Shown here: piece after piece, positions 23,293 through 44,971 of the stretch
Position numbering within the stretch: position 1 is the first letter of the stretch
Layout of the letters: every line of letters begins with the position of its first letter
Source of the DNA: Candidatus Omnitrophota bacterium
GTDB taxonomy: Bacteria; Omnitrophota; Gorgyraeia; Zapsychrales; Zapsychraceae
Direction: 5' to 3'
Assembly (NCBI GenBank): GCA_050250375.1
Contig: JBFWOS010000002.1
Span: 645,149-709,148 of the forward strand
Length of the DNA: 64,000 nucleotides
The notes under the pieces: model-generated
The model's database searches: none
What the model saw: the letters and a program-made list of their open reading frames with translations, nothing else
Told to the model about the DNA's origin: nothing
Position numbers and translations under genes: made by a program

Positions 23293-23294
23293 AA

Positions 23295-27733: not shown

Positions 27734-27811
27734 GGAAAAATAGCGGTCGTTGAAGTGAATAGTAATCGAATGTGTGTTCATAAAAGTCATAGAAGAATCC
27801 ATTTGATGGAT

Positions 27812-27930
27812 CTTATTAAACCGCAATTATACACCTTATCAGATATTCACGCAAGGCGGGTTTTGGAAGGAACGAGACAACCGTTCTTTTAGTGGAAAAA
27901 GGCTGGAAACCATCGCTTTAGGAGAAACGA
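27812..27930 (+). repeat. Intergenic direct repeat copy 1 (family of four)
   Basis: cttattaaaccgcaattatacaccttatcagatattcacgcaaggcgggttttggaagga...ttttagtggaaa.aggctggaaa...ttaggagaaacg. Aligned by eye to the copies at 31063, 37809 and 44869. Confidence 0.85.
27826..27854 (-). promoter_or_regulatory. Sigma70-like promoter inside repeat copy 1, reading toward miaB
   Basis: The minus strand reads TTGCGT-N17-TATAAT. The plus strand has acgcaa at 27849-27854 and attata at 27826-27831. Confidence 0.5.
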
Positions 27931-28396
27931 CTATTTTTCCAAAGTCTGAATGCAAACTTTTTTATTTGCGGAAGTTATCATATTTCAATTTTCAAAGTTA
28001 TTAAACGTAATTCAGGATATTGAAAACGGCACATCGACAATTAACATTTTTTTCCATTTGGCATAAGCTTTTTTATCAAAAGCATTATTCAAATTAAATT
28101 GAACGAATTGAAGATACTCATCCATGGAAAGCACGTGTTTTTCCTGTTTTGTTCCTTTGATAACCGGTAATTTGAAGTCGTCCACTATAGCGCCTCCAGA
28201 ATTTTATTATAAATTTCCTCTGTTCCGAATTTCAGGCATAATTCTTTAAATTTTTTATCCTTGAAATTAATATTATTGATTCTGATCAAATTAATAACAT
28301 CCGGTAAATCTTTGGTTAACCGTAATTTCGACCGAAGATCCGATAGCCATGAGTTTCTATGAAAACGAGCTTCTTATTTTGTTTTATATCAATCAC

Positions 28397-28825
28397 TTAT
28401 AATTCCGTCCTTTTGGTGTTCATCGGTTCATCTGCAGATGAAGGAGTACGAGTAATACGTAGCCAAATTAGTTTTCCAGAATATTTATCGCTGCCTAGTT
28501 CTTTCCTGAGCGATTTGCGCAACTCTGTTAGTAGAGCATCAAGATCAGCAGACTTTTGTGATACAAGTTCATTTACAAGTTTTTGTACAGAAACTATTTG
28601 TTTTTTATTCCCAAAAAGCTGAATATCTGAAACTGCCTGTTCAACATCATCTGCAACTTCATATATCCTTGGATGATGATTTGCCTTTGCAAGAGAACGG
28701 AAAACATCGACTAAATATTTTATTCTTTGTTCTCGTCGTTTATTTTCCCGATCACGCCATGCGGCAAACTGGTGTGAACACACAAGTGTTATTAAAGCTA
28801 CTACAATTGCCGGAATAGAAGTCAT
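28397..28825 (-). CDS. Hypothetical membrane-anchored protein
   Basis: 142 aa with one N-terminal transmembrane helix. No recognisable domain. Confidence 0.4.
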   Translation of the reverse strand: MTSIPAIVVALITLVCSHQFAAWRDRENKRREQRIKYLVDVFRSLAKANHHPRIYEVADDVEQAVSDIQLFGNKKQIVSVQKLVNELVSQKSADLDALLTELRKSLRKELGSDKYSGKLIWLRITRTPSSADEPMNTKRTEL

Positions 28826-28907
28826 GTTGATGTCTTGTCCAATGTTCTGTTTAATTAACTAATTTTTAAGAAAAGCATAACGGATTTTTAGCTCGACATT
28901 TTCTAAA

Positions 28908-29345
28908 TCAATCTTTCTTAAGAGCTTTTTCAAAATTTAAATTCTCAATATTTTGATTTATTCTTCCTCCCCAAAGATCTTTTCGCATTGCAATGACCGC
29001 CTGTTTATATGACTCAGGGGTTGGATCATTCAAGAAGTTATAACTTTTTAACAAAACATCATCTGAAGCATAAAGAATCATATTGTTCCATTCAGTTTTT
29101 AATTCTAAATATAGTCGCTCTTTTGAATTTAAGTCAGGTCTTTGAATTATAAGGAAATCTGACGAATCTTTATATTCCAGGTATCCATACATCAAAAGTA
29201 TGATGGCTTTATATCTCGTTTCTTTATATTGCTGCTTTTGTAGCGATACCGCTTTATTACGCTCCCAAATATTATTAAAGAAGGCGCCAATAATTCCTCC
29301 GATTCCAAGAAGGCTCAGTATTGGAATTATTTCGCTAATTATCAT
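28908..29345 (-). CDS. Hypothetical membrane-anchored protein
   Basis: 145 aa with N-terminal transmembrane helix IIPILSLLGIGGIIGAFF. No recognisable domain. Confidence 0.4.
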   Translation of the reverse strand: MIISEIIPILSLLGIGGIIGAFFNNIWERNKAVSLQKQQYKETRYKAIILLMYGYLEYKDSSDFLIIQRPDLNSKERLYLELKTEWNNMILYASDDVLLKSYNFLNDPTPESYKQAVIAMRKDLWGGRINQNIENLNFEKALKKD

Positions 29346-29462
29346 TATCGGTATCTCCGTTATCTCTAAATAGAATGTGCCCTATCAATTTCTGAGCAAT
29401 TTTCAGCATGGTCGTCCTTTTTCTTGCCCAATGGTCAGCCGAATGTCCATAGGTATATTTTT

Positions 29463-30302
29463 CTATTTCTTCCTTATCGTTTTTTCCGGCTGAGGCGGCA
29501 AGAAGTTATCCTTTGAAACAACTCTTTGCCCTGTTTTCTTCTCCAGATCTTTTCTTGCTTTTTTAGCAATGCCGCCGCCTTTTTTACCGGCAACTTTATT
29601 TTCCTCCATGCCGGTAGCCTGAACGCTTTCGGCAATTTGCCGTGTGGATAATTCTGCCAAGGCGGAAAAAATGAGTTCAGCCTCGGTCATATGATCGCGC
29701 AAATTTTGAGTCTTAAGACCTTTCATCTTTTTATGATCTTTGACGCTTAAATCAGACCATTCCTGATGGATGATATTGGTTAAAATGGCAAACTCGTCTT
29801 CCTTTTTGATTTCGTGGTCTTTCCAGTAATCTGTTAATTTATTGCGGGTCTCCTGGCCCATCATTCTCTGCTGAATCCACTTTTTGCTTCTGCCTTGTTT
29901 CTGCCAGTATTCACGCGAACGGTTAAGAGCTTTTTCAGGATCGGTTATTTCCTGCATTCTTTCATAGCCTACCTTTGCAAGCCATAATTTAATCGGTTCT
30001 GCTTTGGGGCTGGGGACAGATTGAACTAAACGAAGGATAGTTTCGACATCTGCGGTATCAGTCTTGTAGAATTTCCCATCACTGGACTGCATTTTCAGTT
30101 TGTCACATTTTGTGACAGACTCATTCCCTTCCTTTTTTAAACGGTTTTTAAGGGTAGTCCAATAGCTTTGCGCTTTTTTAAAATCTTTTTGTTCTATCAG
30201 AACCGCAATGATATCAATCACCGAAAAATACCAGGTATCGGTTTTCTCATCATAAATTCGACGAATTTTATAATTTTCGAACACTTCCAATGTGTTTTTC
30301 AT
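29463..30302 (-). CDS. DinD / Bro-N-like protein (DNA-damage-inducible protein D family)
   Basis: N-terminal Bro-N-like FENYKIRRIYDEKTDTWYFSVIDIIAVL. The C-terminal block KMKGLKTQNLRDHMTEAELIFSALAELSTRQI resembles E. coli DinD (KGLKKNQKILDHMGSTELAANLF...), compared from memory. Confidence 0.5.
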   Translation of the reverse strand: MKNTLEVFENYKIRRIYDEKTDTWYFSVIDIIAVLIEQKDFKKAQSYWTTLKNRLKKEGNESVTKCDKLKMQSSDGKFYKTDTADVETILRLVQSVPSPKAEPIKLWLAKVGYERMQEITDPEKALNRSREYWQKQGRSKKWIQQRMMGQETRNKLTDYWKDHEIKKEDEFAILTNIIHQEWSDLSVKDHKKMKGLKTQNLRDHMTEAELIFSALAELSTRQIAESVQATGMEENKVAGKKGGGIAKKARKDLEKKTGQRVVSKDNFLPPQPEKTIRKK

Positions 30303-30427
30303 TGCCTTATTTCCTGTTTAGATCTTACCATTTCGATATCTATAAACATTCTCACTAATTTCCAACACCGCTCATAAGTCTCACAAAGATTTTTTATTTG
30401 TACTTTGATCAATCATGGATCGTTCCG

Positions 30428-31084
30428 TTAATAACCCGAAAGACTTACGCCCTGTTGTTCAATCGTTTCCAATAAACCACGGACCCTGACCCGGCGCGCA
30501 TTGTCTTGACAGGTGGACATTACCGAATTGTAATACGCGGCCATTTCCTTATTATCCTTGGTCTTTTGGAAGATGGCGCGTCTTAAACCTTTGATTTTCG
30601 CAATCAGGTCTTCAGCATTGTAATCGCCGGGCAGGGGTTCGCTGTATTCCCCCAGTTTTTGCACGCAAGGCCGTAATGTCTCCTTGACCTTTTCGTCCCA
30701 CACATCAGACTCATCCTCAGAAAACCCGAGCTGCTTCAAACAATACTGCCTGTAATTTTTTAGGTCGCTGCAGTCTTTCGCCGTCAATGTTGTCACTTTT
30801 TTAACATAGTCGATGCATTGGCTGATGGATTGCCAGAGATTCAAATAATTGCAGGGCTTCAAAGACTTTTCTTCTTCAGCCAATTCCACGTAACACCAGC
30901 TGCGCTCTTCATCATCCTCGATGAGATCACACCGGTTCACCAGGCCGGCCTGCGCCCAGCTCAGGTGAGGCGTAAACAACAAAAATAAAATGGGTAACCC
31001 CGTCCAAAACGGCTGATATTTTACAGATTTTTTGTGTGTATCCATCATAGGGTTAATCCAACAAGGCTTCTTATTAAACGGCAA
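30428..31084 (-). CDS. Secreted cysteine-rich hypothetical protein; start probably the internal MMDTHKK
   Basis: Signal-peptide-like PILFLLFTPHLSWAQA and at least 8 Cys in about 180 aa. Confidence 0.45.
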   Translation of the reverse strand: MPFNKKPCWINPMMDTHKKSVKYQPFWTGLPILFLLFTPHLSWAQAGLVNRCDLIEDDEERSWCYVELAEEEKSLKPCNYLNLWQSISQCIDYVKKVTTLTAKDCSDLKNYRQYCLKQLGFSEDESDVWDEKVKETLRPCVQKLGEYSEPLPGDYNAEDLIAKIKGLRRAIFQKTKDNKEMAAYYNSVMSTCQDNARRVRVRGLLETIEQQGVSLSGY

Positions 31085-31197
31085 TTATACACCTTATCAG
31101 ATATTCACGCAAGGCGGGTTTTGGAAGGAATGAGACAACCGTTATTTTAGTGGAAACAGGCTGGAAAACATTGTTTTAGGAGAAACGGTACTTTTTT
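31063..31197 (+). repeat. Intergenic direct repeat copy 2
   Basis: The first ~70 nt (aaggcttcttattaaacggcaattatacacc...ggaaggaatg) are identical to copy 3. Confidence 0.85.
31084..31112 (-). promoter_or_regulatory. Sigma70-like promoter inside repeat copy 2, reading toward gene 30428-31084
   Basis: TTGCGT-N17-TATAAT on the minus strand (plus strand attata 31084-31089, acgcaa 31107-31112). Confidence 0.45.
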
Positions 31198-31245: not shown

Positions 31246-32058
31246 TCACCCAACATCATTGAGGAGTGACCAGTAAACGATGTGGTTCAACCATGATCGG
31301 GGAATTATCGGGTGTAGGTGATACAGCACCCGGTTGGAAAGTCCTGGAATGATGAGGGTGCGGCGTTTTTTCATGCCGTTGTAAGCTGTACGAACCAATT
31401 CAGAAGCCAAAGGCATTTGTCGATAACGTGCTTGACTATAGCTTCCATCAAAGGCCCTTTCCTGGAATTCTGATCGAAAACGCCCCGGACAAAAACTGCT
31501 TACGCAGACACCGGAATTTCGCAATTCATAGGCCAGAGATCTTGAAAATGATAACATACAGGCTTTGCTGGCGAAATATTCGGCTTCCAAAGGACCTGGC
31601 AAAAATGCGGCCATCGAAGCGACGTTTAAGATATGTCCGCTTTTTCTTTTTTTCATCTCCGGAATGAATACATGACATAATTCCATTGCGGTAATGACGT
31701 TGACCTGCATCATTTTATGGATTTGAGAAAAATCGCTTACTACAAATTCGCCAAAGGATCCAAATCCGGCATTGTTGACAAGAACGTCGACCGTAACGCC
31801 AGTGCTTTTGAGTTCCTGTGCAATTTCAAAGGATGCCCCGGGTTGGCTCAAATCTTTAACAAGAATTTCGACATTTAACTTGTTTTTAAGCAGAAGCTCC
31901 TGTTTTATCTCTTTCAGGCGCTCTTGACGACGGGCAATAAGAATCAGGTCGTGCCCTTTTTCTGCAAAAATGCGGGCTAAATCCAAACCCAACCCGCTGG
32001 ATGCTCCGGTTATTAGGGCCGTTTTACGCATAGGCCCTGAAATGAACAACTGTTTCAC
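31246..32058 (-). CDS. Short-chain dehydrogenase/reductase
   Basis: ALITGASSGLG Rossmann motif and YFASKA catalytic motif. Last gene of the PKS operon. Confidence 0.75.
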   Translation of the reverse strand: MKQLFISGPMRKTALITGASSGLGLDLARIFAEKGHDLILIARRQERLKEIKQELLLKNKLNVEILVKDLSQPGASFEIAQELKSTGVTVDVLVNNAGFGSFGEFVVSDFSQIHKMMQVNVITAMELCHVFIPEMKKRKSGHILNVASMAAFLPGPLEAEYFASKACMLSFSRSLAYELRNSGVCVSSFCPGRFRSEFQERAFDGSYSQARYRQMPLASELVRTAYNGMKKRRTLIIPGLSNRVLYHLHPIIPRSWLNHIVYWSLLNDVG

Positions 32059-32791
32059 TCATATACGTGAACATCTCGATATTTTTCAGGCCGCAGTTTT
32101 CGAGAATTGTTTTCAATTCCTCCGGCGGCGGAAAACATTTATTTGATTCCGGAAGATATTGAAAAGAATTAAACTCTCCCCGATGAAAAATATGTTTTCC
32201 CAAAAAAGGCAATACATTCTCAAAGTAAGCCCGGTAAAGAAACGTTTTGACCGGGCCCGTTGGCTTGCCTAAATCAATGATGTTTATGACTCCCCCGGGT
32301 TTGACAACCCGTTTCATTTCTTTGATGCCTTGAACAGGGTCCATTAAATTGCGTAGTCCATAACTCATAAAGACCGCATCAAACATCTTATCTTCAAATT
32401 TTAGCGCTTGAGCATCGGAAATTTTAAACTCAATACTGCTGTTTGCTTTGGCCCTCATCTGTGCGATATCGAGCATTTTCTCGGCGACATCAACGCCGAT
32501 GACATGAGAGCGGGGAAATATTTCTGCAATCAAAAAAGCGATATCCCCTGTTCCGGTGCAAATGTCCAGAACAAGATCGCCGTTTTGAATCCCCGAACAT
32601 CGCACCGCATGTGTTTTGTAGCGGTCTTGCAGGCCGAACGTCAGCACTTGATTCAGAGTGTCGTATTTTGGAGCAAGGCCGTTAAAAAATTTACGGTTAT
32701 ATTCGGCCCAGTTTTTTGCTGTAAAATATTTGCGAAAACCCACCTGATCGATCAATTTGTTTTTATCCATTAGATCAAACGACGTATTCAT
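32024..32791 (-). CDS. Class I SAM-dependent methyltransferase, UbiE/MenG-like
   Basis: LDICTGTGDIA motif I and PGGVINIID post-motif. Overlaps its neighbours on both sides. Confidence 0.8.
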   Translation of the reverse strand: MNTSFDLMDKNKLIDQVGFRKYFTAKNWAEYNRKFFNGLAPKYDTLNQVLTFGLQDRYKTHAVRCSGIQNGDLVLDICTGTGDIAFLIAEIFPRSHVIGVDVAEKMLDIAQMRAKANSSIEFKISDAQALKFEDKMFDAVFMSYGLRNLMDPVQGIKEMKRVVKPGGVINIIDLGKPTGPVKTFLYRAYFENVLPFLGKHIFHRGEFNSFQYLPESNKCFPPPEELKTILENCGLKNIEMFTYMSETVVHFRAYA

Positions 32792-33878
32792 ACTGTTTCT
32801 CTCCTTTCACCTGATTTTTTACTTTTGCGTCCTGCCATTCGGCCAAGCAACCGAACGCTGTCAACCCGGCACCAAATGCAAAGATACCGACCTGATCGCT
32901 GTCTTGGCATGTATTTTGTGCCAGGATATCTTTGAGGACATACAACACACTCGGGGACGACATGTTTCCGTAACGGGCGAGTACCGAACGTGAATAATCA
33001 AACGTATCCGGTTCAAACGGGTGGATTGATTCAATCGCATCAAGAATCGCACGTCCTCCCGGATGAACGGCAAGATAATCAAGATCCAATGTAAAATCTC
33101 GCGTTAATTTTTTATAAACCTGATAAAAAGCGGAAGCGGCTAATCCCGGGACCTCTTTTTTTAAGACATTCATTAAGCGGCCATTTTTTGTCACGTAGCG
33201 CAGGTCATCACGGTATTGCGGCCAAAGGATGGACTGGAATTCTTTGATCAGCAAACCGGTTGAGCGTTCTTTGTTTGTCATTAGGCAGGCCGCCGCTCCG
33301 TCACCAAAAATGGAATTGGAAATGATCAAGTCAAGATTTTCGCTCCAATATGATGTTGCTGTACAAATCTCCACCGCTAAGACAATGACATTGGCATGCG
33401 GGTGAGTGTTGAGATACTGCCAGGCCGATTTCATTCCCGGTACGGCCGCCCCGCAACCTGTTCCAACTATATCAAGCGCGTAAATATTTTCTTTTAATCC
33501 GGCGGCCTGGGAAATATAAGAAGTCAATCCCGGGCAAAGGTAACCTGTGCAAGTCGTAATGACAATACCGTCAATGTCATCTGGAATCAGTCCTGTTTGA
33601 TCAAGTAAACGTCTGACGGCCTCTGTTCCAAGTTTAGTCGCCTGAACCTGAAAACGATGGATGGCCTCGTCCTGAGTTTCCTCAAATAATTTTTCCGGCT
33701 CATCATCAATAGCCACATAGCGGGTATGTATGGACGGCTCGGCAAGAAATTTGCTGTAAAGCCGTTTTTCCTTCTTAGAACGCAACGGTGAGTTAAGGAT
33801 TCGCTCAAGAATAGCTTTTTGAGTTAACTTCAGAGGCGGGTTAGCGGTGGCAATATCGACCAATTTAACGGAAACCAT
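32775..33878 (-). CDS. Type III polyketide synthase (chalcone/stilbene synthase superfamily)
   Basis: Active-site region ITTCTGYLCPGLTSY resembles bacterial RppA-type TSCTGFMMPSLTA. C-terminal FAFGAGLTAFG approximates the GFGPGLT motif. 367 aa. Confidence 0.78.
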   Translation of the reverse strand: MVSVKLVDIATANPPLKLTQKAILERILNSPLRSKKEKRLYSKFLAEPSIHTRYVAIDDEPEKLFEETQDEAIHRFQVQATKLGTEAVRRLLDQTGLIPDDIDGIVITTCTGYLCPGLTSYISQAAGLKENIYALDIVGTGCGAAVPGMKSAWQYLNTHPHANVIVLAVEICTATSYWSENLDLIISNSIFGDGAAACLMTNKERSTGLLIKEFQSILWPQYRDDLRYVTKNGRLMNVLKKEVPGLAASAFYQVYKKLTRDFTLDLDYLAVHPGGRAILDAIESIHPFEPDTFDYSRSVLARYGNMSSPSVLYVLKDILAQNTCQDSDQVGIFAFGAGLTAFGCLAEWQDAKVKNQVKGEKQYEYVV

Positions 33879-35037
33879 AAGGACTCCTTTGCGACGTAAA
33901 AGCAGATGATTGATGAAATGTGTTAAATAAACTGTTTATATTTTTCTCGCGCCACTTAAGCACGCGGATAATCATGTTAGATGCATTCTTGTCGTGGCCG
34001 ATTGACCCGATCATTTTTGATAAACGGATCGGCCAGGCAAAACGACGTTTGAATGTTTTTTCATAAACACGGGCTACGGATGACCGGTCAACCTCCCCCG
34101 GACGGGTAGAACCGAGCAGGCCTCCTAAAAGGATGCCGCTATTTAAAGCCAAAGAAATGCCGCCTCCTGCAACAGGATGAATCAAAGCCGCAGCGTCACC
34201 GACATAAAAGGCGTTTCCATCGAAAAACCGGCTGCGGCGATTCATATCAACGAAAATCCCCTTCCATGGGCTGAGCAGACGGGACGAACCCATCTGCCGG
34301 CTTAAACACGGATTGGAGGAAAGTAAGTGAGACCAAATATTTTCGTACTTCCCCTTCAGCTGTTTAAAAAGAGAACCTTTAATGACATAACAGACGTTTA
34401 CGGCATTATTTTCAAAACGGTTAATGCCGACATGTCCCCGATCGATAAAGTGCATAATCACATCACTGCCCATATTTTGGCACGAATCAAACAGGCCAAA
34501 GACGCCAAACAACCGTGATGGGGAATTCTGTAATCCGGTTTCAGGAATGCCGCCATTGGCATAAATAAGATGCCGGACTTTGATGTCGTTTTGTATTGCA
34601 GCCTTTGATTTGGTAAGTGTCAATTGACACATCTGTGGCGTATGAACGATGTTTTTCGCCACGCACGCATCTTCAAAGATAACTCCCAAGCTTTTGGCTT
34701 TTTGAACCATGATGTCATCTAAAGATTTGCGGCTGAACCCTAAACCTGAATGGGAATTACTGTCGGTAAGTAATGGCACCCGGATGAATTGTCCATTGGA
34801 CGCACTTAAATGGACGTGTGTCACTTCCAGGGCCCCTTTCTCCATGATTTCGTCAAGGATACCGTAACGCACAAAGATAGACCTATTCTCAGGGCCAATA
34901 AAACCTCCGCACACTTTGTCTCTCGGAAAAGATGATTTTTCGATTAAAACGACTTTCCATCCTTTCGATGCCAACTCCATCGATGTCGCGAGCCCTGCCG
35001 GGCCGGCACCAATAATAGCCGCGTCGTAATAGTTCAT
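33865..35037 (-). CDS. FAD-dependent oxidoreductase/monooxygenase (geranylgeranyl-reductase-like)
   Basis: AAIIGAGPAGLATSMEL dinucleotide-binding motif and a GG-reductase-like core. Confidence 0.75.
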   Translation of the reverse strand: MNYYDAAIIGAGPAGLATSMELASKGWKVVLIEKSSFPRDKVCGGFIGPENRSIFVRYGILDEIMEKGALEVTHVHLSASNGQFIRVPLLTDSNSHSGLGFSRKSLDDIMVQKAKSLGVIFEDACVAKNIVHTPQMCQLTLTKSKAAIQNDIKVRHLIYANGGIPETGLQNSPSRLFGVFGLFDSCQNMGSDVIMHFIDRGHVGINRFENNAVNVCYVIKGSLFKQLKGKYENIWSHLLSSNPCLSRQMGSSRLLSPWKGIFVDMNRRSRFFDGNAFYVGDAAALIHPVAGGGISLALNSGILLGGLLGSTRPGEVDRSSVARVYEKTFKRRFAWPIRLSKMIGSIGHDKNASNMIIRVLKWREKNINSLFNTFHQSSAFTSQRSPYGFR

Positions 35038-35624
35038 GATGAAATCTCTTTAAGAAGCGACTGAAAGTGTATATGGACGGTGTCAAACACCCGGATTAAC
35101 ATCAAAACAGACGGCGGTTTGAGATTTAACGCCTTCAGGCTTAAATCGACGTCTCCGCTCAGCACAATTCCCTCTTCTGTTTCCGCAATCACAACAGGTA
35201 TTTCAATATTCTGTGATTGATCTTTAATGGTCAGCTGTCCTTTTAAAACATAGCTTCGTGGGCGGCTGTCCTTTGATGCCTGGGGCATCACCGTAGAGAA
35301 AGAATAACGGATGTCAGGAAAATGTTTGCTATCGAACATCAAGAACATTTGTTCGTCGCGCTTTTCATTCTGTGTATCCAGGGAAGATGTTTCAACATGA
35401 ACATCCCCTGATTCAAGAAAATGGTCTGATTCAGAATCTGTCTGAAATGTCCCTTTAAATCGGTGCGCCTTTCCTTCAACCTCGTGCAGTGTGGAGCGGA
35501 AGGAAAACTTAATGAGGCTTTGGCTCGTATCAATGGCATAAGTCGTCTGGTCAGCCATAACCGGCTTCAAAAACATGATTCCTGAAAGAGTGATAATGCC
35601 GAATACGATAAAGATGTTTTTCAT
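35034..35624 (-). CDS. YceI-like periplasmic lipid/polyisoprenoid-binding protein
   Basis: Start at MKNIFIVFG (signal peptide) with AAGGAGG 7 nt upstream. YceI-like beta-barrel region LIKFSFRSTLHEVEGKA. The ORF track extends to 35720 through the Shine-Dalgarno sequence. Confidence 0.65.
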   Translation of the reverse strand: MKNIFIVFGIITLSGIMFLKPVMADQTTYAIDTSQSLIKFSFRSTLHEVEGKAHRFKGTFQTDSESDHFLESGDVHVETSSLDTQNEKRDEQMFLMFDSKHFPDIRYSFSTVMPQASKDSRPRSYVLKGQLTIKDQSQNIEIPVVIAETEEGIVLSGDVDLSLKALNLKPPSVLMLIRVFDTVHIHFQSLLKEISS

Positions 35625-35776
35625 GGTGGTCCTCCTTAAAGGGATAGTATGCCTGAGTAAATCCAACAAATCACCCGGAGAATAGCGATCGGCCTGAAAA
35701 AACAATGAAAAAAATGTCACTGGAAGGAAGAATCCCGCAAATTTTTGCAGGGTGACGTTCAGGAGAGAATTTTTGT

Positions 35777-36331
35777 TTAGGAAATTCCGTACTTTTTCAG
35801 TTTATACCATAAGGTCCGTTCGGAAATTTTCAACAGTTTCGCGGCTTGAGCCTTGACATGGCCGGATTGTTCGAGGGCTTTGATGATCAATTCTTTTTCC
35901 CGCTGAGAAACACCTTCATCAAGCGATAGTAAAGGCTGTGTTGCGGTACCGGGTTGGGGATATTTTTGCAGGATTTCACGGATTAACTTTTCTAAATCAT
36001 CAACCGTAAAAGGCTTCTGAATATAATCATCCGCCCCGTGCTTAAGCGATTTTACAGCCGTATCAACATCCGAATGCGCGGTCATCACGATAATGGGCAG
36101 GTCAATGTTCAGGCGTTCCAATTCGTAGATCAGTTCAACGCCGGACATCCCAGGCAACCGTATATCGGTCAGCAGAATATCGACCGCTTTATTGAAGATA
36201 ATATCCAAGGCTTCTTCTGCTGTCGTCGCTGTCAGAACGTTAAACCCCAGAGGCTTAAATCCGAGGCGCAAGACGCGTAAAAGCCGCTCTTCGTCATCAA
36301 CAATCAATAAATTAACTACCGGCTGAGACAT
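35777..36331 (-). CDS. Response regulator, REC plus Fis-type HTH, no sigma54 AAA domain
   Basis: LLIVDDEE...DILLTDIRLPGMSG receiver domain and C-terminal HTH (GHVKAQAAKLLKISERTLWYKLKKYGI). Likely start at MSQPVVNL. Confidence 0.75.
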   Translation of the reverse strand: MSQPVVNLLIVDDEERLLRVLRLGFKPLGFNVLTATTAEEALDIIFNKAVDILLTDIRLPGMSGVELIYELERLNIDLPIIVMTAHSDVDTAVKSLKHGADDYIQKPFTVDDLEKLIREILQKYPQPGTATQPLLSLDEGVSQREKELIIKALEQSGHVKAQAAKLLKISERTLWYKLKKYGIS

Positions 36332-37634
36332 TGGAATTTTCCTTGGCTTTTTTAAATAATAAGGTGACCGTTGTTCCTTTTTCCGGGATCGACGTAAGCG
36401 CAATATGCCCCTTATTATTTTCGACAATTTTCTTGGCGACGAAGAGTCCAAGACCAGAACCATTTTCTTTTGTTGTTACAAATGGGTCAAAGACTTTATT
36501 GATGATCTTAGGATCGATGCCGCGGCCTGAATCACTGATAATTATTTCATAGATTCCTTTATTTGCAGAAGTTGTGATGGTGACCTCTTTGTCCGGACGG
36601 GAAGCTTGGATGGCGTTAAGGATGATGTTGATCAAGACTTGTTTCAATTGATCTCGGTCGCATAATATCCGCTGGCCGGCCGCTTTATTGGAGAACAGAA
36701 GGCGCACGCTGTGTTTTTTGCCAACCCCAACTAAGAGCTGAATAACCTGTTGAATGGTTTCGGCAGGATCTTCATCCGGTATGATTTTTTTCGCAGTTAT
36801 ATTTAATTGAAGGAGTTGGTCAATCAGACCATTAATTCGATCCGCCTCTTCGATCAGATATCCTGAAATCTCATACTCCTCGGAATCAGCAGGAAGTTTT
36901 TTCTTAATAACAGAGGCCGATGATTTAATGATACTCAGCGGATTACGAATTTCATGGGAAAGACTTTGGGCTATGAGGCCAATAGTCTGATTCTTTTCAT
37001 TGTTAATTAGGGACAGGGTATTTTTGTTGATCACGTGAATAAACCAGGTCGCCACTCCGGTCAGAAAAAGGAGAAAAACGACGGTCATGATTGTCATCGG
37101 GAGCAGGATTTGCTGTTTTGTTTCTTCCGCAGAGTTCGCGGCCTCGCCTATTTCCTGGATATAAAAACCTTGTAAGTTCATCGAAGCCAGGCGCATGGAC
37201 TGTAATTGTTGAATGACATGTTGTTTGAACGCAATTGAAGCAGAGGGTGCCTTAAGAGTTTCCAAGAGGATCTGGAAGTTATCAGCAATTTTCAGGTAAT
37301 CTTTATTTTCCGCGATGCTGTGGCTTGCTTCTTCATACTCTTCCAAACGGACGGAAGACTGCCGTATTTCATCCAATTCTTGTGATAATTGTTCCAAGGT
37401 GGCTAAATCGATCTTTTCCAGGGGCGCATTATTTTCAAGTTGCGATATGTCAGCGATAATTTCTTCTGTTTCATTGATAAAAGCGGTTACAACCTTAAGC
37501 TCCCTCCATTCTTCATCCAGACGTTGATGGGCGGTGTTCATCGCGAAGATTCTATTAAAAATAACACCCGCGCCGATTACGACAAATAAAAGAATGATGA
37601 AAATATATAATCTGACCTGGTGAGTTAGCTTCAT
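36312..37634 (-). CDS. Sensor histidine kinase
   Basis: Two transmembrane helices, HisKA H-box LSHEIRNPL and HATPase_c (DSGRGI...GSGLGL). Confidence 0.8.
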   Translation of the reverse strand: MKLTHQVRLYIFIILLFVVIGAGVIFNRIFAMNTAHQRLDEEWRELKVVTAFINETEEIIADISQLENNAPLEKIDLATLEQLSQELDEIRQSSVRLEEYEEASHSIAENKDYLKIADNFQILLETLKAPSASIAFKQHVIQQLQSMRLASMNLQGFYIQEIGEAANSAEETKQQILLPMTIMTVVFLLFLTGVATWFIHVINKNTLSLINNEKNQTIGLIAQSLSHEIRNPLSIIKSSASVIKKKLPADSEEYEISGYLIEEADRINGLIDQLLQLNITAKKIIPDEDPAETIQQVIQLLVGVGKKHSVRLLFSNKAAGQRILCDRDQLKQVLINIILNAIQASRPDKEVTITTSANKGIYEIIISDSGRGIDPKIINKVFDPFVTTKENGSGLGLFVAKKIVENNKGHIALTSIPEKGTTVTLLFKKAKENSNVSAGS

Positions 37635-37808
37635 AAAGAATTAGAATCATTTTTGTATTAGAGGGATACAATTGGCCTTAATTAATTCCCTGCTCGATTG
37701 GCGCTTCAGTGATATTTTCTTTTACTATTCTTTTTTGCAACCATCGGGCGCACATCTTCACAATAAAAATTGCTTTTTCGGGTGTGTCGTTCATAGGGGC
37801 AATTCACG

Positions 37809-37933
37809 AAGGCTTCTTATTAAACGGCAATTATACACCTTATCAGATATTCACGCAAGGCGGGTTTTGGAAGGAATGTTAAGACCGTTATTTTAGTGGA
37901 AACAGACTGGAAAGTATTTATTTAAGAGAAACG
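37809..37933 (+). repeat. Intergenic direct repeat copy 3
   Basis: See copy 2. Lies in the divergent region between the HK gene and the EPS operon. Confidence 0.85.
37830..37858 (-). promoter_or_regulatory. Sigma70-like promoter inside repeat copy 3, reading toward the HK/RR/PKS genes
   Basis: TTGCGT-N17-TATAAT on the minus strand (plus strand attata 37830-37835, acgcaa 37853-37858). Confidence 0.45.
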
Positions 37934-38069: not shown

Positions 38070-38762
38070 ATGAGACAAAAAATTCGGATGTGGCCTTGGA
38101 TGATTGTCGGGATACTGATTGTGGTTGATACCTATCTGGTCTTTGAAACGACGCATACATTCTATAAACACTATCATATAGGCCGGCGTCTTTATGATGA
38201 AGGGAAATATTCCCAGGCCCTGCCTCATCTTTTAGGAGCTTATCGTATGAGCCCGGAGAACAAAAATGTTGGCTGGAAACTGATTTCGGCTTTCCAGCAG
38301 CTTGGACGGGAAGCCGAAGCGCGCCGTGTTCTCGAAAGACTGAGTGCCCGGACTTCGGTAAACCTTGAAGCCATCGAGCAATTGGGCGACATGTCGTATT
38401 CGACGAAGGCATATTCCCTGGCACGCCACCAATATTATCGAATACTACTGCGTAAACCATCTGATGAAATCCGAAAAAAGTATGCCTTGGCGCTTTTCGC
38501 GGAAGAAAACTATGTTGCGGCCCTTCAGCAAATGGACATTCTTTTGGCAAAAAAATCAGATGATTTTGATCTCCGTTTTCAACACGCACAAATCATTGCA
38601 GCTTTGGGAGATCATGATCGGGCGAGTCGCGAACTCAATTCATTAAGGGATGATGGGTACACAAAAAAAGAGGCGCTCATTTTGCTGGCGGACCAGCTCC
38701 GCCATCTCGGACGGGAAGAAGAAGCAATAAAAATATATCGGGAGGTATTCAATGAAAGCTAA
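38070..38762 (+). CDS. TPR-repeat protein with N-terminal transmembrane anchor
   Basis: One transmembrane helix (WMIVGILIVV) then TPR-like helical repeats. Its C-terminal about 130 aa is paralogous to the C-terminus of the next gene. Confidence 0.6.
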   Translation: MRQKIRMWPWMIVGILIVVDTYLVFETTHTFYKHYHIGRRLYDEGKYSQALPHLLGAYRMSPENKNVGWKLISAFQQLGREAEARRVLERLSARTSVNLEAIEQLGDMSYSTKAYSLARHQYYRILLRKPSDEIRKKYALALFAEENYVAALQQMDILLAKKSDDFDLRFQHAQIIAALGDHDRASRELNSLRDDGYTKKEALILLADQLRHLGREEEAIKIYREVFNES

Positions 38763-39651
38763 CAGGGCATGGATTGCCGCTGTATCTTCGATCTTTCTAA
38801 TTTTGACCGATTCCGTATCGTTCGGTGAAACAGATCTTACAGTCGAAGACCGGGCAAAGATGGGAGAAATTTATAGTCTGGAACGGCTTCAAAGATACGA
38901 TGAGGTAAAACCGCTTATCGCGGCGCTGCGCAGTCGATATCCTGAGAACAGCGAGATCAAATGGACGCAGGCGCGCATCCTGGGGTTCAGCGGGAGTTGG
39001 GAAGAAGCATCGGGCATTTTTGATGAGTTATGTGCCGATGAGTGTGAAAAAGAAATTGTCGTAACCTACGGGCACATCCTTGAATCGCAGGGCTCCAATC
39101 CCGGAACTTTGTCGCACATCAAGAAATTGGTGGACAGATATCCCGATTATGAAAAACTTCAGTCGATCTATATACAAATTTTATCCTGGAACGGCCAAAA
39201 CCCGGAAGGACGTGCTGCTCTCGAGAAACTCCATGAACAATTCCCGGAAGACCTTAAAATTATCGCTGCCTTGGGAGACGCTGCGTACGCCGCTGAAAAA
39301 TATACGCTTGCAGAGAAATATTATAGACATTTCCTGAGCCAGGAAATGTCTCCGGACGTTCACAATAAGTTCATCAATACACTGATTAGTCAGAAAAAGC
39401 ATGTGGAAGCGATTGAGGAAATGGATCGTTTGCTTCTCGAGGATCCGCAAAATCCGGATTTGCGCCATCAGTATGCCAGGGTCCTCTCCACCGCGGGAAA
39501 GCATGAAGAGGCCGTCAGTGAGTTAAAGACGTTGTTGCAGGAAGGCTATCAGAAAAAAGAGGCGCTGGTCCTGCTTGGCGATGAGCTTCGTTTATTGGGA
39601 CGCAATGATGAAGCTCTAAAGGTCTATCGCGAGGTTACAAATGCGGATTAA
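38752..39651 (+). CDS. Secreted TPR-repeat protein
   Basis: Signal peptide. The N-terminal domain (LTVEDRAKMGEIYSLERLQRYDE...) is paralogous to the N-terminus of 39641-41566. The C-terminus is paralogous to 38070-38762. Confidence 0.6.
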   Translation: MKANRAWIAAVSSIFLILTDSVSFGETDLTVEDRAKMGEIYSLERLQRYDEVKPLIAALRSRYPENSEIKWTQARILGFSGSWEEASGIFDELCADECEKEIVVTYGHILESQGSNPGTLSHIKKLVDRYPDYEKLQSIYIQILSWNGQNPEGRAALEKLHEQFPEDLKIIAALGDAAYAAEKYTLAEKYYRHFLSQEMSPDVHNKFINTLISQKKHVEAIEEMDRLLLEDPQNPDLRHQYARVLSTAGKHEEAVSELKTLLQEGYQKKEALVLLGDELRLLGRNDEALKVYREVTNAD

Positions 39652-41566
39652 ATGGCCGTTCGTGTTACCTTTATTGCTGATCGCCGGGGTTGCATCAAAG
39701 GCCTACGGGGCCAGCCCTCCCCTCACGCTTGAGGATCGCGCCAAAATCGGAGAAATTTACACTCTGGAGGATCTGAAACAGTACGATGACGCCTTACCGC
39801 TGATCGAGGATCTCATGGATCGGTATCCCGATGACAGGGAGGTTCAGCGGACCTATGTGCGGATCGTTGGATTTGGAGGAGACTGGGAACGGGCCGCGGA
39901 AGTTATGGAGACCCTGTGTGTGGAGCACTGCGATGACCAAATTGTCGAAACATACGGACATATCCTTGAGGCACAAGGCCCAAATCCGGATACACTGGTC
40001 GAGATGGAAAGACTCCTTGAGCGGTACCCTCAGAATCCTGAGCTTAAATCCATTTATGCGGACATGTCTACCTGGAATCAATCATCGAACGCACAGTCGG
40101 CGACTGTTAATACCCCTCAGGATGGTCAGGTCGATTTGAATGATGTTCAAATTCTTGTCGAGCAGAATAGGCATGAGGAAGCTCTGGACTTGATTGAGCG
40201 TTACCTGGACACCTCCCCAGAAGATGAATCGGCGCTCCTGTGGAAAGCTCGCGTCCTGAGCTGGTACGGGAAACGAATTCCTGCTATTCGGGTGTATCAG
40301 GAACTAATACAGGCCGATCCAGACAACATCACGTATTATCGAGAATGCGCACGTGTTATGGGATGGGCCGGAAATTATTATAATTCGAGCAAGATTTATC
40401 AGAAGGCGATCGAACGTTTTCCTGATCACGCAGGCCTTAAGGCCGAGGCCGCCGCAAAAAACGCCTATTATCACGGTAAATTCCTTCAGGCTGAAGAAAA
40501 CTACCGTAATTGGTTGGAGATAGAGTCGGGTAACCCCGAGGCTCTTTTTGATTTGGGGCAGATCCACGCGCGCAGCCGGCGCTTCTCGGCTACCCAGATG
40601 GACTATGCGGAACTGTTCGAGAGATATCCGAGCATCGATGAAGCCCGTTCTGCCCGTGATAAGGCCGATTTGTACGCACATGGTTGGATGACGGAATCCG
40701 GATTTACGCGCTATGAGGCGGACAGCGAATCCCGGCAGGCGGACGTACGGTTGAATCAGATTTTTACACAATTCGAAAAGATGATTCTCGGGAACATGTG
40801 GGTCGGGATACGGACCGAGGATCTGGATTATTTCTTCAACGATACGGATGCTGAGATCAGCCGTCAACGCTATTCGGCCTGGCTGGGACAAGGTTTCTCT
40901 CCTACGACATATTGGCAGGCGGGATTCGGAATCAGTAAATCTTCCGATGGGCTCAAGGACCTTTATTATCCCCATGCGCAAGTTCAGCTGCCTTTCATAT
41001 CTGAGAAATTTTTATGGAATCTTTCCTATAAACAAGACGATATCATCCAAAATTCAGACACGATCATCAGCACCCTGCAAGCCGATGAATATCGCGTGCG
41101 TGGGACATACAAGCCGTTTAAATTTATCGAAATCGGTGGTGATGAAAGTATTGCCCTATACTCCGATGACAATGAGCGGGAGATGTTCGGCGGCGACGCA
41201 GCATGGATTATGCTGCATGAACCCATGCGTTTGGTGGCGAAATATCGTTGGCAAAATACCCAATATGATCAGATCAATCCGGATTATTTCTCACCGGATG
41301 ACTTCGTATCCAAACGGGCTTCGCTGGAATGGCAGCATTACCTCAATAAGCGCAATTTATATTGGGGAGCAAATCAAACTTGGTACCGGCTGAAATATGA
41401 ATACGTTATGAATCCAAGTGATATTAATCATGTGATTACGGCCGGACTCAACCTGGAGTTGAGTAAAAGGTTGATATTAAAAGTTGAAGCCCAACGCACT
41501 TTGCACGAAGACCAGGATATATATAAAGAAAACATAGGAACGGCTTCGGTATTCTTCATTTTTTAG
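39641..41566 (+). CDS. Outer-membrane exopolysaccharide export protein, BcsC/PgaA-like: TPR N-terminus plus C-terminal beta-barrel
   Basis: Signal peptide, TPR region, then an about 300 aa C-terminal region with alternating aromatic/hydrophobic pattern ending in F (…ASVFFIF), as expected for an outer-membrane beta-barrel. Confidence 0.6.
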   Translation: MRIKWPFVLPLLLIAGVASKAYGASPPLTLEDRAKIGEIYTLEDLKQYDDALPLIEDLMDRYPDDREVQRTYVRIVGFGGDWERAAEVMETLCVEHCDDQIVETYGHILEAQGPNPDTLVEMERLLERYPQNPELKSIYADMSTWNQSSNAQSATVNTPQDGQVDLNDVQILVEQNRHEEALDLIERYLDTSPEDESALLWKARVLSWYGKRIPAIRVYQELIQADPDNITYYRECARVMGWAGNYYNSSKIYQKAIERFPDHAGLKAEAAAKNAYYHGKFLQAEENYRNWLEIESGNPEALFDLGQIHARSRRFSATQMDYAELFERYPSIDEARSARDKADLYAHGWMTESGFTRYEADSESRQADVRLNQIFTQFEKMILGNMWVGIRTEDLDYFFNDTDAEISRQRYSAWLGQGFSPTTYWQAGFGISKSSDGLKDLYYPHAQVQLPFISEKFLWNLSYKQDDIIQNSDTIISTLQADEYRVRGTYKPFKFIEIGGDESIALYSDDNEREMFGGDAAWIMLHEPMRLVAKYRWQNTQYDQINPDYFSPDDFVSKRASLEWQHYLNKRNLYWGANQTWYRLKYEYVMNPSDINHVITAGLNLELSKRLILKVEAQRTLHEDQDIYKENIGTASVFFIF

Positions 41567-41585
41567 GGTACATGGGAGAGATGCC

Positions 41586-44968: not shown

Positions 44969-44971
44969 ATG

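Follow-up and report, generated by a model that had tools for sequence, protein, structure and literature searches.

A type III polyketide synthase operon of Omnitrophota with a secreted YceI-like protein and an adjacent two-component system, predicted to make a modified phenolic lipid

The minus strand of a 64,000-nucleotide stretch of Candidatus Omnitrophota DNA (referred to as the window) carries a compact unit, likely an operon that directs the synthesis of a modified long-chain phenolic lipid under two-component control. The product is most likely a hydroxylated and methylated alkylresorcinol or alkylquinone lipid that would be passed to a periplasmic YceI carrier; herein, all reactions are predicted at the level of sequence. 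The operon is ordered YceI, FAD oxidoreductase (FADox), type III polyketide synthase (PKS), methyltransferase (MT), and SDR, and a histidine kinase (HK) and a response regulator (RR) adjoin it directly upstream (Table 1). All seven ORFs were found where a preliminary description of the window had placed them, and they agree with the NCBI gene calls on JBFXCX010000001.1 (GCA_050181705.1, a Candidatus Omnitrophota MAG). Their Pfam assignments lie above the gathering cut-offs, which bears out the gene families that were named for the five operon members. Consecutive genes of the operon overlap by 4 nt (YceI/FADox), 14 nt (FADox/PKS), 17 nt (PKS/MT), and 8 nt (MT/SDR, from ATG 32031; 35 nt from GTG 32058). 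With an RR start at 36331, the HK and RR genes share 20 nt. The locus is thereby confirmed as a real, tightly packed operon, and its earlier reading, in which a type III PKS operon with translational coupling serves a phenolic-lipid pathway, survives the tests run, with the product chemistry remaining a prediction. The operon contains neither an acyl-activating enzyme nor an ACP gene, and an MMPL exporter gene is present neither in the operon nor in the window.

Table 1. Features of the operon and its surroundings, in positions of the window
Feature	Size	Position	Strand	Basis
Classical SDR	261 aa from ATG 32031	31246..32031	-	PF00106, motifs
UbiE/MenG/COQ5-subfamily SAM-dependent methyltransferase	255 aa	32024..32791	-	PF01209, TIGR01934
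Type III PKS	367 aa	32775..33878	-	Pfam, PDB match, catalytic triad
FAD-dependent oxidoreductase	390 aa	33865..35037	-	PF01494, motifs, AF2/Foldseek
Secreted YceI-like lipid/polyisoprenoid-binding protein	196 aa	35034..35624	-	PF04264, hydrophobic N terminus
RR-yceI intergenic region	152 nt	35625..35776	-	Hairpin scan, direct sequence reading
Response regulator	184 aa (NCBI form)	35777..36331	-	Response_reg + HTH_8
Sensor histidine kinase	440 aa	36312..37634	-	Pfam HisKA + HATPase_c, motifs
Repeat copy 2, just 3' of the SDR stop, other edge of the unit		31028..31187		Repeat family D1
Repeat copy 3, upstream of the HK gene		37774..37933		Repeat family D1

The PKS matches the Pfam domains FAE1_CUT1_RppA, Chal_sti_synt_C, and Chal_sti_synt_N with 74, 58, and 42 bits, respectively. 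Its catalytic triad consists of Cys142 (GTGCGAA), His272 (HPGG), and Asn305 (GNMSS), and Phe191 lies within FGDGAA. The triad is invariant across 24 homologues and is aligned in the best PDB match, the THN synthase 1u0m (E 1.2e-35, 126 bits). With a profile of the PKS family, the top 60 structure matches are exclusively type III PKS/KCS, and the NCBI annotation of the protein is type III polyketide synthase. Weak Pfam matches to ACP_syn_III (28 bits) and ACP_syn_III_C (41 bits) and the NCBI name 3-oxoacyl-ACP synthase for some relatives would suggest a condensing enzyme of the FabH/KAS III type that belongs to fatty-acid metabolism, but this reading is effectively refuted. The type III PKS domains outscore these matches, and E. 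coli FabH shares 23% identity at 46 bits (as opposed to the 126 bits of THN synthase) and carries HQAN and GNTSAAS at the positions of HPGG and GNMSS. The preliminary description had staked its type III assignment on the triad and on separation from FabH; since the triad is kept and the PKS stands apart from FabH, the assignment holds.

The PKS would load a fatty-acyl thioester, extend it with malonyl-CoA units, and cyclise the chain, most likely to a 5-alkylresorcinol. Priming by malonyl-CoA or acetyl-CoA would instead lead to a small aromatic (THN, phloroglucinol, or DpgA-like) and no lipid. THN synthase being the best single-sequence PDB match fits such a product, as does DpgA being the best NCBIfam match (140 bits); however, this score is far under the cut-off of 425, DpgB/C/D-type partners are absent, and the neighbours in the operon point to lipids (YceI here; MMPL and neighbouring Mla genes in relatives). 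Moreover, the PKS clade nests with alkylresorcinol-type operons, and a small aromatic is highly improbable. For the long-chain substrate, lactonisation without aldol cyclisation (as in Pks18/Pks11 and ArsC) would yield alkylpyrones that are then methylated and reduced. The alkylpyrone synthases Pks18 and Pks11 rank among the best PDB matches of the PKS, and the JGI name of one relative is “alkylresorcinol/alkylpyrone synthase.” Nevertheless, a ring hydroxylase and a quinol-type C-methyltransferase better suit a resorcinol-to-quinone route, and alkylpyrones are an unlikely outcome.

The set of YceI, FADox, PKS, and UbiE-type MT is conserved at related loci, with PKS identities of 74% (L083), 68% (L085), 52% (L087), and 48–50% (L088–L090). 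As an identical gene set and order recurs in independent metagenome assemblies, the arrangement is not due to chance. In a neighbour-joining tree of 170 PKS sequences, the YceI-type loci form one clade (bootstrap 52/100), which nests at 100/100 with operons of the order MT-FADox-PKS from Omnitrophota and Planctomycetales (L091, L003, and L004). The PKS identity to these loci is ~45–48%. The link of the PKS to the characterised alkylresorcinol synthases (SrsA, ArsB/C, HidC, PkqA) runs via uncharacterised intermediates. In L088–L090, an MMPL gene is inserted between the yceI and oxidoreductase genes, and L173 carries an MFS exporter gene.

These exporters, MMPL as well as MFS, would also fit a phenolic lipid that is released and acts as a bioactive or signalling compound (hierridin-like, or resembling antibiotic alkylresorcinols), where YceI and the exporter serve secretion as opposed to envelope insertion. 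This is a doubtful reading. Hid-like operons do nest with the YceI clade, and bioactivities have been reported for cyanobacterial alkylresorcinols; however, long-chain alkylresorcinols are poorly soluble and mostly membrane-bound, and the window gives no pointer to a target or self-resistance gene. In addition, the planctomycetal compounds behaved unlike those of other alkylresorcinol producers in phenotypic assays (Milke et al. 2024, PMC10896814).

FADox matches FAD_binding_3 (PF01494) over its full length (61.6 bits) and contains the motifs GAGPAG (10–15), PRDKVCGG (38–45), and GDAA (280–283). The pattern PRxKVCG[EG] occurs in 99 of 101 FAD oxidoreductases encoded beside type III PKS genes, covering all architectures and many phyla and including one from an actinobacterial srs/pkq-like locus. 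For its AF2 model (pLDDT 90), Foldseek ranks flavin halogenases and aromatic hydroxylases of class A highest, and none of 33 family members has the halogenase motif WxWxIP. FADox is most likely a ring monooxygenase (hydroxylase), which would convert the ring to an alkyl-benzenetriol/hydroquinone that is oxidisable to an alkylquinone. A reductase role is also conceivable by sequence because the annotation of distant relatives is geranylgeranyl or menaquinone reductase. In L172 and at least nine other PKS loci, the FADox slot is occupied by a U32-family protein; these proteins are divergent (Pfam 20–43 bits) and not orthologues of UbiU/UbiV. The U32 family includes the O2-independent hydroxylases UbiU/UbiV, and the alternation of flavoenzyme and U32 protein mirrors the aerobic and anaerobic routes of ubiquinone synthesis.

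The MT, labelled previously as a plain SAM methyltransferase, can be refined to the UbiE/COQ5 type. It matches Ubie_methyltran (PF01209) with 178 bits and passes TIGR01934 (198 bits, cut-off 158). It scores under the cut-off in all equivalog models and hence is a paralogue as opposed to the housekeeping enzyme. SAM motif I is LDICTGTG (75–82). Among solved structures, yeast Coq5 (4obw, E 1.1e-20) comes closest, and the ring C-methyltransferases CouO and NovO rank next. Within the clade, the MT gene adjoins the PKS gene in eight of ten contexts. The MT is probably a ring C-methyltransferase, judging from these matches, and would methylate the ring, probably at carbon.

FADox and MT together resemble the late steps of ubiquinone and menaquinone synthesis (UbiE/MenG/Coq5; UbiH/I/F versus UbiU/V), where a methyltransferase of the same subfamily acts; the ring, however, would come from a polyketide here and from chorismate there, and the operon has no prenyltransferase. 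This likeness, including the alternation of an O2-dependent flavoenzyme with a U32-family protein, makes it possible, if tentatively so, that the product is a polyketide quinone (PkQ-like, as from pkqABC) serving as a redox carrier in the membrane or periplasm with YceI as quinone chaperone, and not a structural or protective envelope lipid. PkQs made by the same enzyme trio are alternative electron carriers (PMC9927152), and YceI-family proteins are described as lipid/polyisoprenoid-binding. However, the secreted YceI and the MMPL exporter of the relatives point to export from the cytoplasmic membrane as opposed to retention therein, and the accessory two-component control suits a conditional function.

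The YceI protein matches PF04264 with 72.8 bits (cut-off 23.7), and its sole PDB match is weak. Its N terminus is hydrophobic, signal-peptide-like, and ends in VMA/DQ, with cleavage probably occurring after VMA24. A Shine-Dalgarno sequence, AAGGAGG (35637–35631), lies 6 nt ahead of the ATG, and both the signal peptide and the strong Shine-Dalgarno sequence had been recognised correctly in the preliminary description. The gene is encoded first and has the strongest ribosome-binding site of the operon. A YceI gene also leads the operon in L083, L085, L087, L088, L089, L090, and L172. Following the preferred reading of an envelope-directed lipid, this secreted β-barrel protein would bind the hydrophobic product in the periplasm and act as a carrier or chaperone toward the envelope.

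The SDR matches adh_short (PF00106) with 149 bits and contains TGASSGLG (8–15), NNAG (86–89), and YFASK (152–156); in NCBIfam and PDB, only generic SDR matches were obtained. The start at 32058 that was assumed at first is less probable than ATG 32031, which is favoured by the NCBI call and by the position of TGxxxGxG at residues 8–15. An orthologue occupies the same position in L085 (43% identity), and the gene is absent from L083 (despite 74% PKS identity), L087–L090, and L172. The SDR is an accessory last gene and no conserved member of the operon; being of the NAD(P)H type, it might add an extra reduction at an unspecified target.

The trio of PKS, MT, and FADox corresponds to the published make-up of srsABC, pkqABC, hidABC, and the planctomycetal operons, and the srsABC-like composition that had been recognised is thus correct. 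This type of cluster is well known, and the operon is not a new kind of gene cluster. Closest are the planctomycetal operons and cyanobacterial hidABC (hierridin B; PMC10896814, PMC8086630), which likewise combine PKS, SAM methyltransferase, and an oxidoreductase of the same PRxKVCG[EG] family in one operon and whose characterised members make C15–C17 alkylresorcinols. Planctomycetal PKSs from MT-FADox-PKS operons gave C15/C17 alkylresorcinols upon heterologous expression (PMC10896814), and co-expression of the G. maris MT and oxidoreductase led to C-methylated alkylresorcinols. The present operon differs in its order (FADox-PKS-MT as opposed to MT-FADox-PKS), in its UbiE/COQ5-type MT (a different class-I methyltransferase with a separate HMM in hid-like loci), and in the addition of a secreted YceI, an SDR, and a two-component system of its own. 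The pentacistronic operon of “Saltatorellus ferox” Poly30 (Milke et al. 2024) encodes a “lipid/isoprenoid-binding protein,” the InterPro name for YceI-like domains, upstream of methyltransferases and a PKS that makes alkyl- and methyl-alkylresorcinols; the likeness to YceI is by description only. No other characterised type III PKS operon with such a protein was found in the literature searched. Poly30 has two methyltransferases and a lipoprotein, lacks FADox, and is not reported to have a two-component system. The srsABC operon (Streptomyces griseus) and pkqABC (Mycobacterium smegmatis/Streptomyces sp. MNU77) produce alkylquinones, or “polyketide quinones,” with the logic predicted here: an alkylresorcinol is methylated and hydroxylated to an alkylbenzoquinone. 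The actinobacterial locus L066, with srs/pkq gene order, has an oxidoreductase homologous to FADox. Nonetheless, srsABC and pkqABC are ordered PKS-MT-oxidoreductase, their MT belongs to another family, and their PKSs are distant in the tree. They also lack the YceI, SDR, and adjacent two-component system that had been noted as extras and are all present here, and their hosts are Gram-positive and have no periplasm.

In the HK, two predicted transmembrane helices (about residues 8–30 and 176–200) flank a periplasmic sensor of ~145 aa; the H-box is HEIRNPL (227–233), and the N, G1, and G2 boxes are present. The RR consists of a receiver domain and a Fis-type HTH (Response_reg 103 bits, HTH_8 58 bits) without a sigma-54 AAA+ domain, with the acidic pocket DDE at 12–14 and the phospho-acceptor Asp in TDIRLP at 55–60. 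A longer ORF spans 35777–36463; NCBI calls the 184-aa form. Full-length HK orthologues occupy the same position in L083 and L085 (46% and 40% identity), as do RR orthologues (72% and 59%), and the claim that the operon has its own two-component system is strengthened by this synteny in the two closest relatives. In L087 and L172, this place is taken by another pair, of the OmpR type, that is common to both. From synteny, the HK-RR pair probably controls the operon. The gap between the RR and yceI genes contains a terminator-like hairpin with a T-run (35751–35734, by scan) and a conserved −10-like element, GGCATACTAT (TACTAT at 35649–35644); the hairpin and the element GGCAyAmTrT are conserved in an alignment with L083 and L085. 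This gap is probably the operon's own RR-controlled promoter, through which the HK with its periplasmic sensor and the REC-Fis-HTH RR would activate transcription.

The operon and HK/RR lie exactly between copies 2 and 3 of a ~160-nt repeat with four copies (family D1), as had been described. On the minus strand, copy 2 precedes an unrelated secreted-protein ORF (30428–31048) that has no homologue at the corresponding position in related loci. Copy 3 has no Rfam match and does not fold significantly as RNA (z between −0.6 and +0.3), and neither of the HK orthologues in L083 and L085 is preceded by the repeat; the flanking repeat is genome-specific and outside the conserved system. Within this genome, copy 3 may be a promoter module of the HK-RR pair, given the minus-strand element TTGCGT-17 nt-TATAAT (37858–37830). 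A 38-codon sORF starts at 37794, ~35 nt beyond this promoter-like element.

Seven consecutive genes lie on the minus strand (31246-37634 in the ORF listing), and all of them score above the Pfam gathering cut-offs. The PKS locus is identical to that on contig JBFXCX010000001.1 of MAG GCA_050181705.1, labelled Candidatus Omnitrophota bacterium by NCBI, and the central gene is already annotated there as type III polyketide synthase. The preliminary description had proposed an overlapping five-gene operon, and its genes, strand, and overlaps are borne out by the ORF listing and Pfam, with overlaps of 4, 14, and 17 nt at the first three biosynthetic junctions. What changes is the SDR start: the methyltransferase and SDR genes overlap by 35 nt from the GTG proposed there and by 8 nt from the ATG used by NCBI, which is preferred here and places the TGxxxGxG motif at residues 8-15. 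The strong Shine-Dalgarno sequence and signal peptide described for YceI are likewise found, as AAGGAGG precedes its start and its N terminus is hydrophobic and signal-like; AAGGAG precedes the PKS and AGGAG the methyltransferase. The ORF that follows the SDR gene was considered as a sixth member and rejected, since relatives have no homologue at that position.

Features of the window, with positions, strands, and assignments
Feature	Position (nt)	Strand	Assignment
Histidine kinase	36312-37634	minus	Pfam HisKA/HATPase_c
Response regulator	35777-36331 (NCBI 184-aa form; longest ORF to 36463)	minus	Pfam; receiver and Fis-type HTH
Hairpin with T-run	35751-35734		after response regulator stop
YceI	35034-35624	minus	Pfam
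Oxidoreductase	33865-35037	minus	Pfam FAD_binding_3
Type III PKS	32775-33878	minus	Pfam
Methyltransferase	32024-32791	minus	Pfam Ubie_methyltran
SDR	31246-32058 (GTG start; NCBI ATG at 32031)	minus	Pfam adh_short
ORF after SDR	30428-31048		
Repeat, ~160 nt, copies 1 to 4	27770-27929, 31028-31187, 37774-37933, 44810-44969		near-identical core of ~125 nt
sORF, 38 codons	from 37794		
Low-GC stretch	28000-30400		
Bro-N-domain protein	29463-30302		
Small proteins	28397-28825, 28908-29345		N-terminal hydrophobic segments
Divergent operon	38070-44248	plus	
Direct repeat D2, 186 nt	22388-22573, 22633-22818		70% identity
bAvd/23S-rRNA-IVP-family gene	22860-23294		
Palindrome, 54 nt	50624-50677, 63004-63057		two identical copies

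In agreement with the preliminary description, the product of the PKS gene is a type III PKS by sequence; it is neither FabH nor DpgA. Neither ground for refutation named in that description, a grouping with FabH/KAS III or a missing Cys-His-Asn triad, is observed. This assignment is based on the catalytic triad, the comparison with FabH, the family-profile ranking of PDB structures, and the DpgA score. With 74.1, 58.5, and 41.9 bits, the Chal_sti_synt/FAE1_CUT1_RppA domains of Pfam exceed the cut-off of 27 bits. As a single sequence, the PKS has THN synthase (1u0m) as its best PDB match (E 1.2e-35, 126 bits), followed by Pks18, Pks11, chalcone synthases, and 3-ketoacyl-CoA synthases, and with the family profile the best 60 PDB matches are all type III PKS/KCS structures. 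Cys142, His272, and Asn305 align with the catalytic triad of 1u0m and are invariant across an alignment of 24 homologues (41-100% identity). FabH of Escherichia coli (from NC_000913.3) is a far weaker match, with 23% identity and 46 bits, and its HQAN and GNTSAAS positions are occupied by HPGG and GNMSS in the PKS. The best NCBIfam model is that of the 3,5-dihydroxyphenylacetyl-CoA synthase DpgA (NF042429), which was rejected, since 140 bits are reached against a cut-off of 425. The PKS was placed by PDB rankings, by E. coli FabH as outgroup, and by a neighbor-joining (NJ) tree of environmental sequences labelled by operon architecture.

Gene contexts of the close PKS relatives were taken from exact-protein look-ups. 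The matches listed from scans of genome and metagenome contigs with the PKS alignment are all at most 48% identical to the window PKS, and none of them shows the YceI/UbiE architecture. Neighboring methyltransferases and oxidoreductases were called with clade HMMs; BLASTP at 1e-6 missed most of them.

Gene contexts of relatives of the window PKS (L-numbers denote loci; HK, histidine kinase; RR, response regulator; FADox, FAD oxidoreductase; MT, methyltransferase)
Locus	PKS identity	Gene context
L083	74%	HK-RR-YceI-FADox-PKS-UbiE MT
L085	68%	HK-RR-YceI-FADox-PKS-UbiE MT + SDR
L087	52%	OmpR-type RR + HAMP kinase, then YceI-FADox-PKS-UbiE MT
L088, L089, L090	48-50%	YceI-MMPL-FADox-PKS-UbiE MT; MlaE/F/D after operon in L088, L089
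L172	49%	OmpR-type TCS-YceI-PKS-U32-UbiE MT
L173	47%	PKS-UbiE MT-MFS
L174	48%	B12 radical SAM-PKS
L091	45%	class-I MT-FADox-PKS

The partner proteins in these relatives are 28-62% identical to their window counterparts. Among the matches listed, the 160 more distant loci of genomes and metagenomes contain no PKS-adjacent YceI or MMPL gene by clade HMMs and mostly consist of FADox-PKS, MT-PKS, or, in this order, PKS, a gene of ~700 bp, and FADox. In the distance-based NJ tree of 170 PKS sequences, rooted with FabH, the YceI/UbiE loci form one clade with a bootstrap value of 52/100, whereas this clade joined by L091, L003, L004, and L173 reaches 100/100 (both from a 36-taxon subset). Herein, L091, L003, and L004 are uncharacterised MT-FADox-PKS loci from Omnitrophota and Planctomycetales, and the named members of the clusters close to the window PKS are all Omnitrophota. 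Any link from the window PKS to the characterised alkylresorcinol synthases SrsA, HidC, PkqA, and ArsB would run indirectly, by way of such uncharacterised loci. From gene contexts, HMM calls on distant loci, and the tree, the conserved core hence consists of YceI, FAD oxidoreductase, PKS, and UbiE-type methyltransferase.

The combination of a type III PKS, a methyltransferase, and an FAD oxidoreductase is that of srsABC from Streptomyces griseus (PMC9927152, PMC8086630). The same trio makes polyketide quinones as pkqABC in Mycobacterium smegmatis and Streptomyces (PMC9927152) and hierridin B as hidABC (PMC8086630). Trio operons occur in 58 planctomycetal genomes, where the PKSs make C15/C17 alkylresorcinols (Milke et al. 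2024, PMC10896814). By analogy, the window operon is expected to work like these systems. The srs-like trio had been pointed out in the preliminary description, together with YceI, SDR, and two-component system as departures from srs; the trio lies here as three adjacent overlapping genes on one strand, in keeping with co-transcription as in srs/pkq/hid-type operons, and all three additions are present. Compared with the srs, pkq, hid, and planctomycetal systems, the window operon differs in gene order and methyltransferase family; in addition, it has an SDR, a two-component system that is conserved, and YceI, which is joined by MMPL in relatives. As judged on the loci of hid-like and srs-like relatives, a methyltransferase of the same family as in srs/pkq/hid-type operons was rejected: hid-like relatives carry a different class-I methyltransferase (recognised by a separate HMM), whereas that of the window is of the UbiE/COQ5 type (PF01209, TIGR01934), and most srs-like loci among the matches listed have the ~700-bp gene, which is matched by neither methyltransferase HMM.

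The window oxidoreductase, spanned over its full length by PF01494, belongs to the oxidoreductase family typical of type III PKS loci, since it shares PRxKVCG[EG], located after GxGxxG, with 99 of the 101 PKS-adjacent oxidoreductases among the matches listed. These carriers cover every architecture and include the actinobacterial PKS-MT-FADox locus L066; with 77-345 bits, the clade HMM also recognises the oxidoreductases beside the PKS of srs-like, hid-like, and flavobacterial loci. Homologues at ≤29% identity are named geranylgeranyl or menaquinone reductase, and close ones FAD-dependent monooxygenase or NAD(P)/FAD-dependent oxidoreductase. A geranylgeranyl reductase was rejected, since model TIGR02032 gives 93.2 bits, below its cut-off of 158.8, and the best 50 PDB structures retrieved by Foldseek with the AlphaFold model (pLDDT 90) include no such enzyme. 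The top fold matches are the flavin-dependent phenol/pyrrole halogenases Bmp2, PltA, Mpy16, and CndH, followed by a second group of class A aromatic hydroxylases (3-hydroxybenzoate 6-hydroxylase, PqsL, and PHBH). Despite this similar fold, a halogenase was likewise rejected, since WxWxIP is absent from the window oxidoreductase and occurs in 0 of 33 aligned family members. The enzyme is thus best read as a putative ring monooxygenase, which agrees with the hydroxylase function that has been reported for its srs/pkq and hid counterparts.

The methyltransferase scores 178 bits with PF01209 and 198.2 bits with the UbiE/MenG subfamily model TIGR01934 (cut-off 158.35). It is not considered a housekeeping UbiE or MenG orthologue, since every equivalog model stays below its cut-off (NF001244 with 194.5 bits against 216, all others far below). 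Its nearest solved structure is yeast Coq5 (4obw), with CouO and NovO, both aromatic C-methyltransferases, coming next, and we infer that it acts in ring C-methylation. Co-expression of the methyltransferase and oxidoreductase of G. maris gave C-methylated alkylresorcinols (Milke et al., PMC10896814). The SDR belongs to the classical type, has its motifs intact, and is otherwise generic; its gene is accessory, because it is limited to the window and L085 among the compared loci. [quoted passage not shown]

YceI (PF04264, 72.8 bits against a cut-off of 23.7) is predicted to be a secreted YceI-like member of the lipid/polyisoprenoid-binding family, and a signal-like N terminus is shared by five of seven homologues. 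Its gene comes first wherever an operon carries it. In three relatives, the gap between the yceI and oxidoreductase genes is filled by an MMPL/RND gene with a sterol-sensing-type region (L088:3586-5808, L089:3494-5725, and L090:3475-5742), and in L088 and L089, a DeoC-like gene and the Mla lipid-transport genes follow just downstream. This MMPL gene within the operon and the Mla genes behind it suggest that a hydrophobic product is handled across the envelope; the window has no MMPL gene anywhere. A full-text literature search gave no paper that pairs 'type III polyketide synthase' with YceI and none relevant with UbiE. The sole published hint of a link to YceI found in the literature searched is the 'Saltatorellus ferox' operon, where a PKS and two methyltransferases are encoded together with a lipid/isoprenoid-binding protein (PMC10896814).

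Upstream of yceI, the kinase contains two predicted transmembrane helices that flank a periplasmic segment of ~145 aa. Full-length orthologues occur in L083 (46% identity) and L085 (40%), and the regulator is 72 and 59% identical, respectively. At this position, L087 and L172 carry another pair, which is of the OmpR type and orthologous between these two loci (74 and 56% identity), and L088 has a LuxR-type pair on the opposite strand. Recruitment of different sensor systems beside the operon has thus occurred repeatedly, which supports signal-dependent expression. A redox pair of the RegA/RegB type was rejected: the REC and HTH_8 domains fit, but the RegB model (cut-off 350) gives the kinase 76 bits, and two transmembrane helices are predicted for it. 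The hairpin behind the response regulator gene is conserved with L083 and L085, as is a GGCAyAmTrT element ~20 nt before the Shine-Dalgarno sequence; the biosynthetic genes probably possess their own promoter. From synteny alone, we infer that the regulator controls the operon.

In further PKS loci, the slot held elsewhere by the FAD oxidoreductase contains a divergent Peptidase_U32-family protein. Among the matches listed, a complete U32-family gene lies directly upstream of MT-PKS in six loci (L005, L006, L007, L012, L099, and L100), and three more (L008, L016, and L148) have one at this upstream position that is cut by the contig end. In L096, the protein is fused to a methyltransferase domain, and in L172 (7512-8786), the gene lies inside a YceI-type operon. 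A profile match to PDB 5d88 (E 2e-15) assigns the protein to the U32 family, as do its invariant cysteines, among them those of a C-terminal CX4CX2CX2C. Taxon-named U32 loci among the matches listed come from Chloroflexia, Victivallales, Desulfobacterales, a deltaproteobacterium, and Desulfomicrobium MAGs, the majority of these groups being anaerobes. The U32 family contains UbiU/UbiV, which hydroxylate without oxygen, and by analogy, the U32 protein of PKS operons may be an oxygen-independent ring hydroxylase. The exchange of FAD oxidoreductase and U32 protein, together with UbiU/UbiV being in this family, supports the view that the flavoenzyme slot encodes a hydroxylase; it also suggests that hydroxylated phenolic lipids or polyketide quinones may be made by an anaerobic route. 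Full-text searches gave no relevant paper that links U32 proteins with type III PKS operons.

A far-reaching but improbable reading is that Omnitrophota and neighboring lineages make a quinone whose ring is polyketide-derived, not chorismate-derived, and move it out as a redox shuttle. In this scheme, an alkylresorcinol made by the type III PKS would be hydroxylated at its ring by the O2-dependent flavoenzyme in the window or by the O2-independent U32-family Fe-S protein in anaerobic relatives. After C-methylation of the ring by the UbiE-type enzyme, the product would resemble ubiquinone or plastoquinone as their alkyl analogue. A YceI protein would be its dedicated carrier in the periplasm, joined in some genomes by an MMPL pump, and would take this quinone from the cytoplasmic membrane to sites in the envelope or outside the cell, where the quinone would act as a redox shuttle. 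Omnitrophota are an uncultured phylum of very small, possibly host-dependent cells, and to our knowledge, none of their natural products or specialised lipids has been characterised. The window operon represents a compact, clearly bounded five-gene candidate that could be expressed heterologously, and the pairing with YceI (and MMPL in relatives) would define a physiological ligand for the YceI family, the function of which is poorly understood. If the product were just another methylated alkylresorcinol, the gain would be one phylum and a gene-order variant of a known cluster class.

The operon lies between copies 2 and 3 of the ~160-nt repeat, as had been described. On the minus strand, copies 1-3 contain TTGCGT-17 nt-TATAAT followed ~35 nt later by an ATG, which in copy 2 starts the ORF after the SDR gene and in copy 3 the 38-codon sORF that precedes the kinase gene. 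The repeat was rejected as a structured RNA and as a conserved regulator site, since it has no Rfam match and no significant RNA fold and is missing where related MAGs have the orthologous loci. It resembles a genome-specific promoter/leader module that has been duplicated and lies outside the conserved PKS system. Between copies 1 and 2 lies the low-GC stretch (36% versus ~46% for the window) with genes for a Bro-N-domain protein and two small proteins; it may be foreign or mobile DNA. The upstream region with copy 3 is shared with the divergent operon next to the kinase gene, which encodes three TPR proteins, a 511-aa GT2 glycosyltransferase, and a GH8 glycoside hydrolase and is predicted to be a cellulose-synthase-like exopolysaccharide gene set. 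The direct repeat D2 adjoins the bAvd/23S-rRNA-IVP-family gene; a TR/VR pair of a diversity-generating retroelement was rejected, since D2 consists of tandem genes for CDGSH-type iron-sulfur/zinc-finger proteins and its mismatches are not adenine-specific. The perfect 54-nt palindrome (AAAAAGGTGACGGACACCGTTTTT...AAAAACGGTGTCCGTCACCTTTTT) occurs in two copies 12.4 kb apart that look like bidirectional terminators, and the GC content between them is unusually variable (36-55%).
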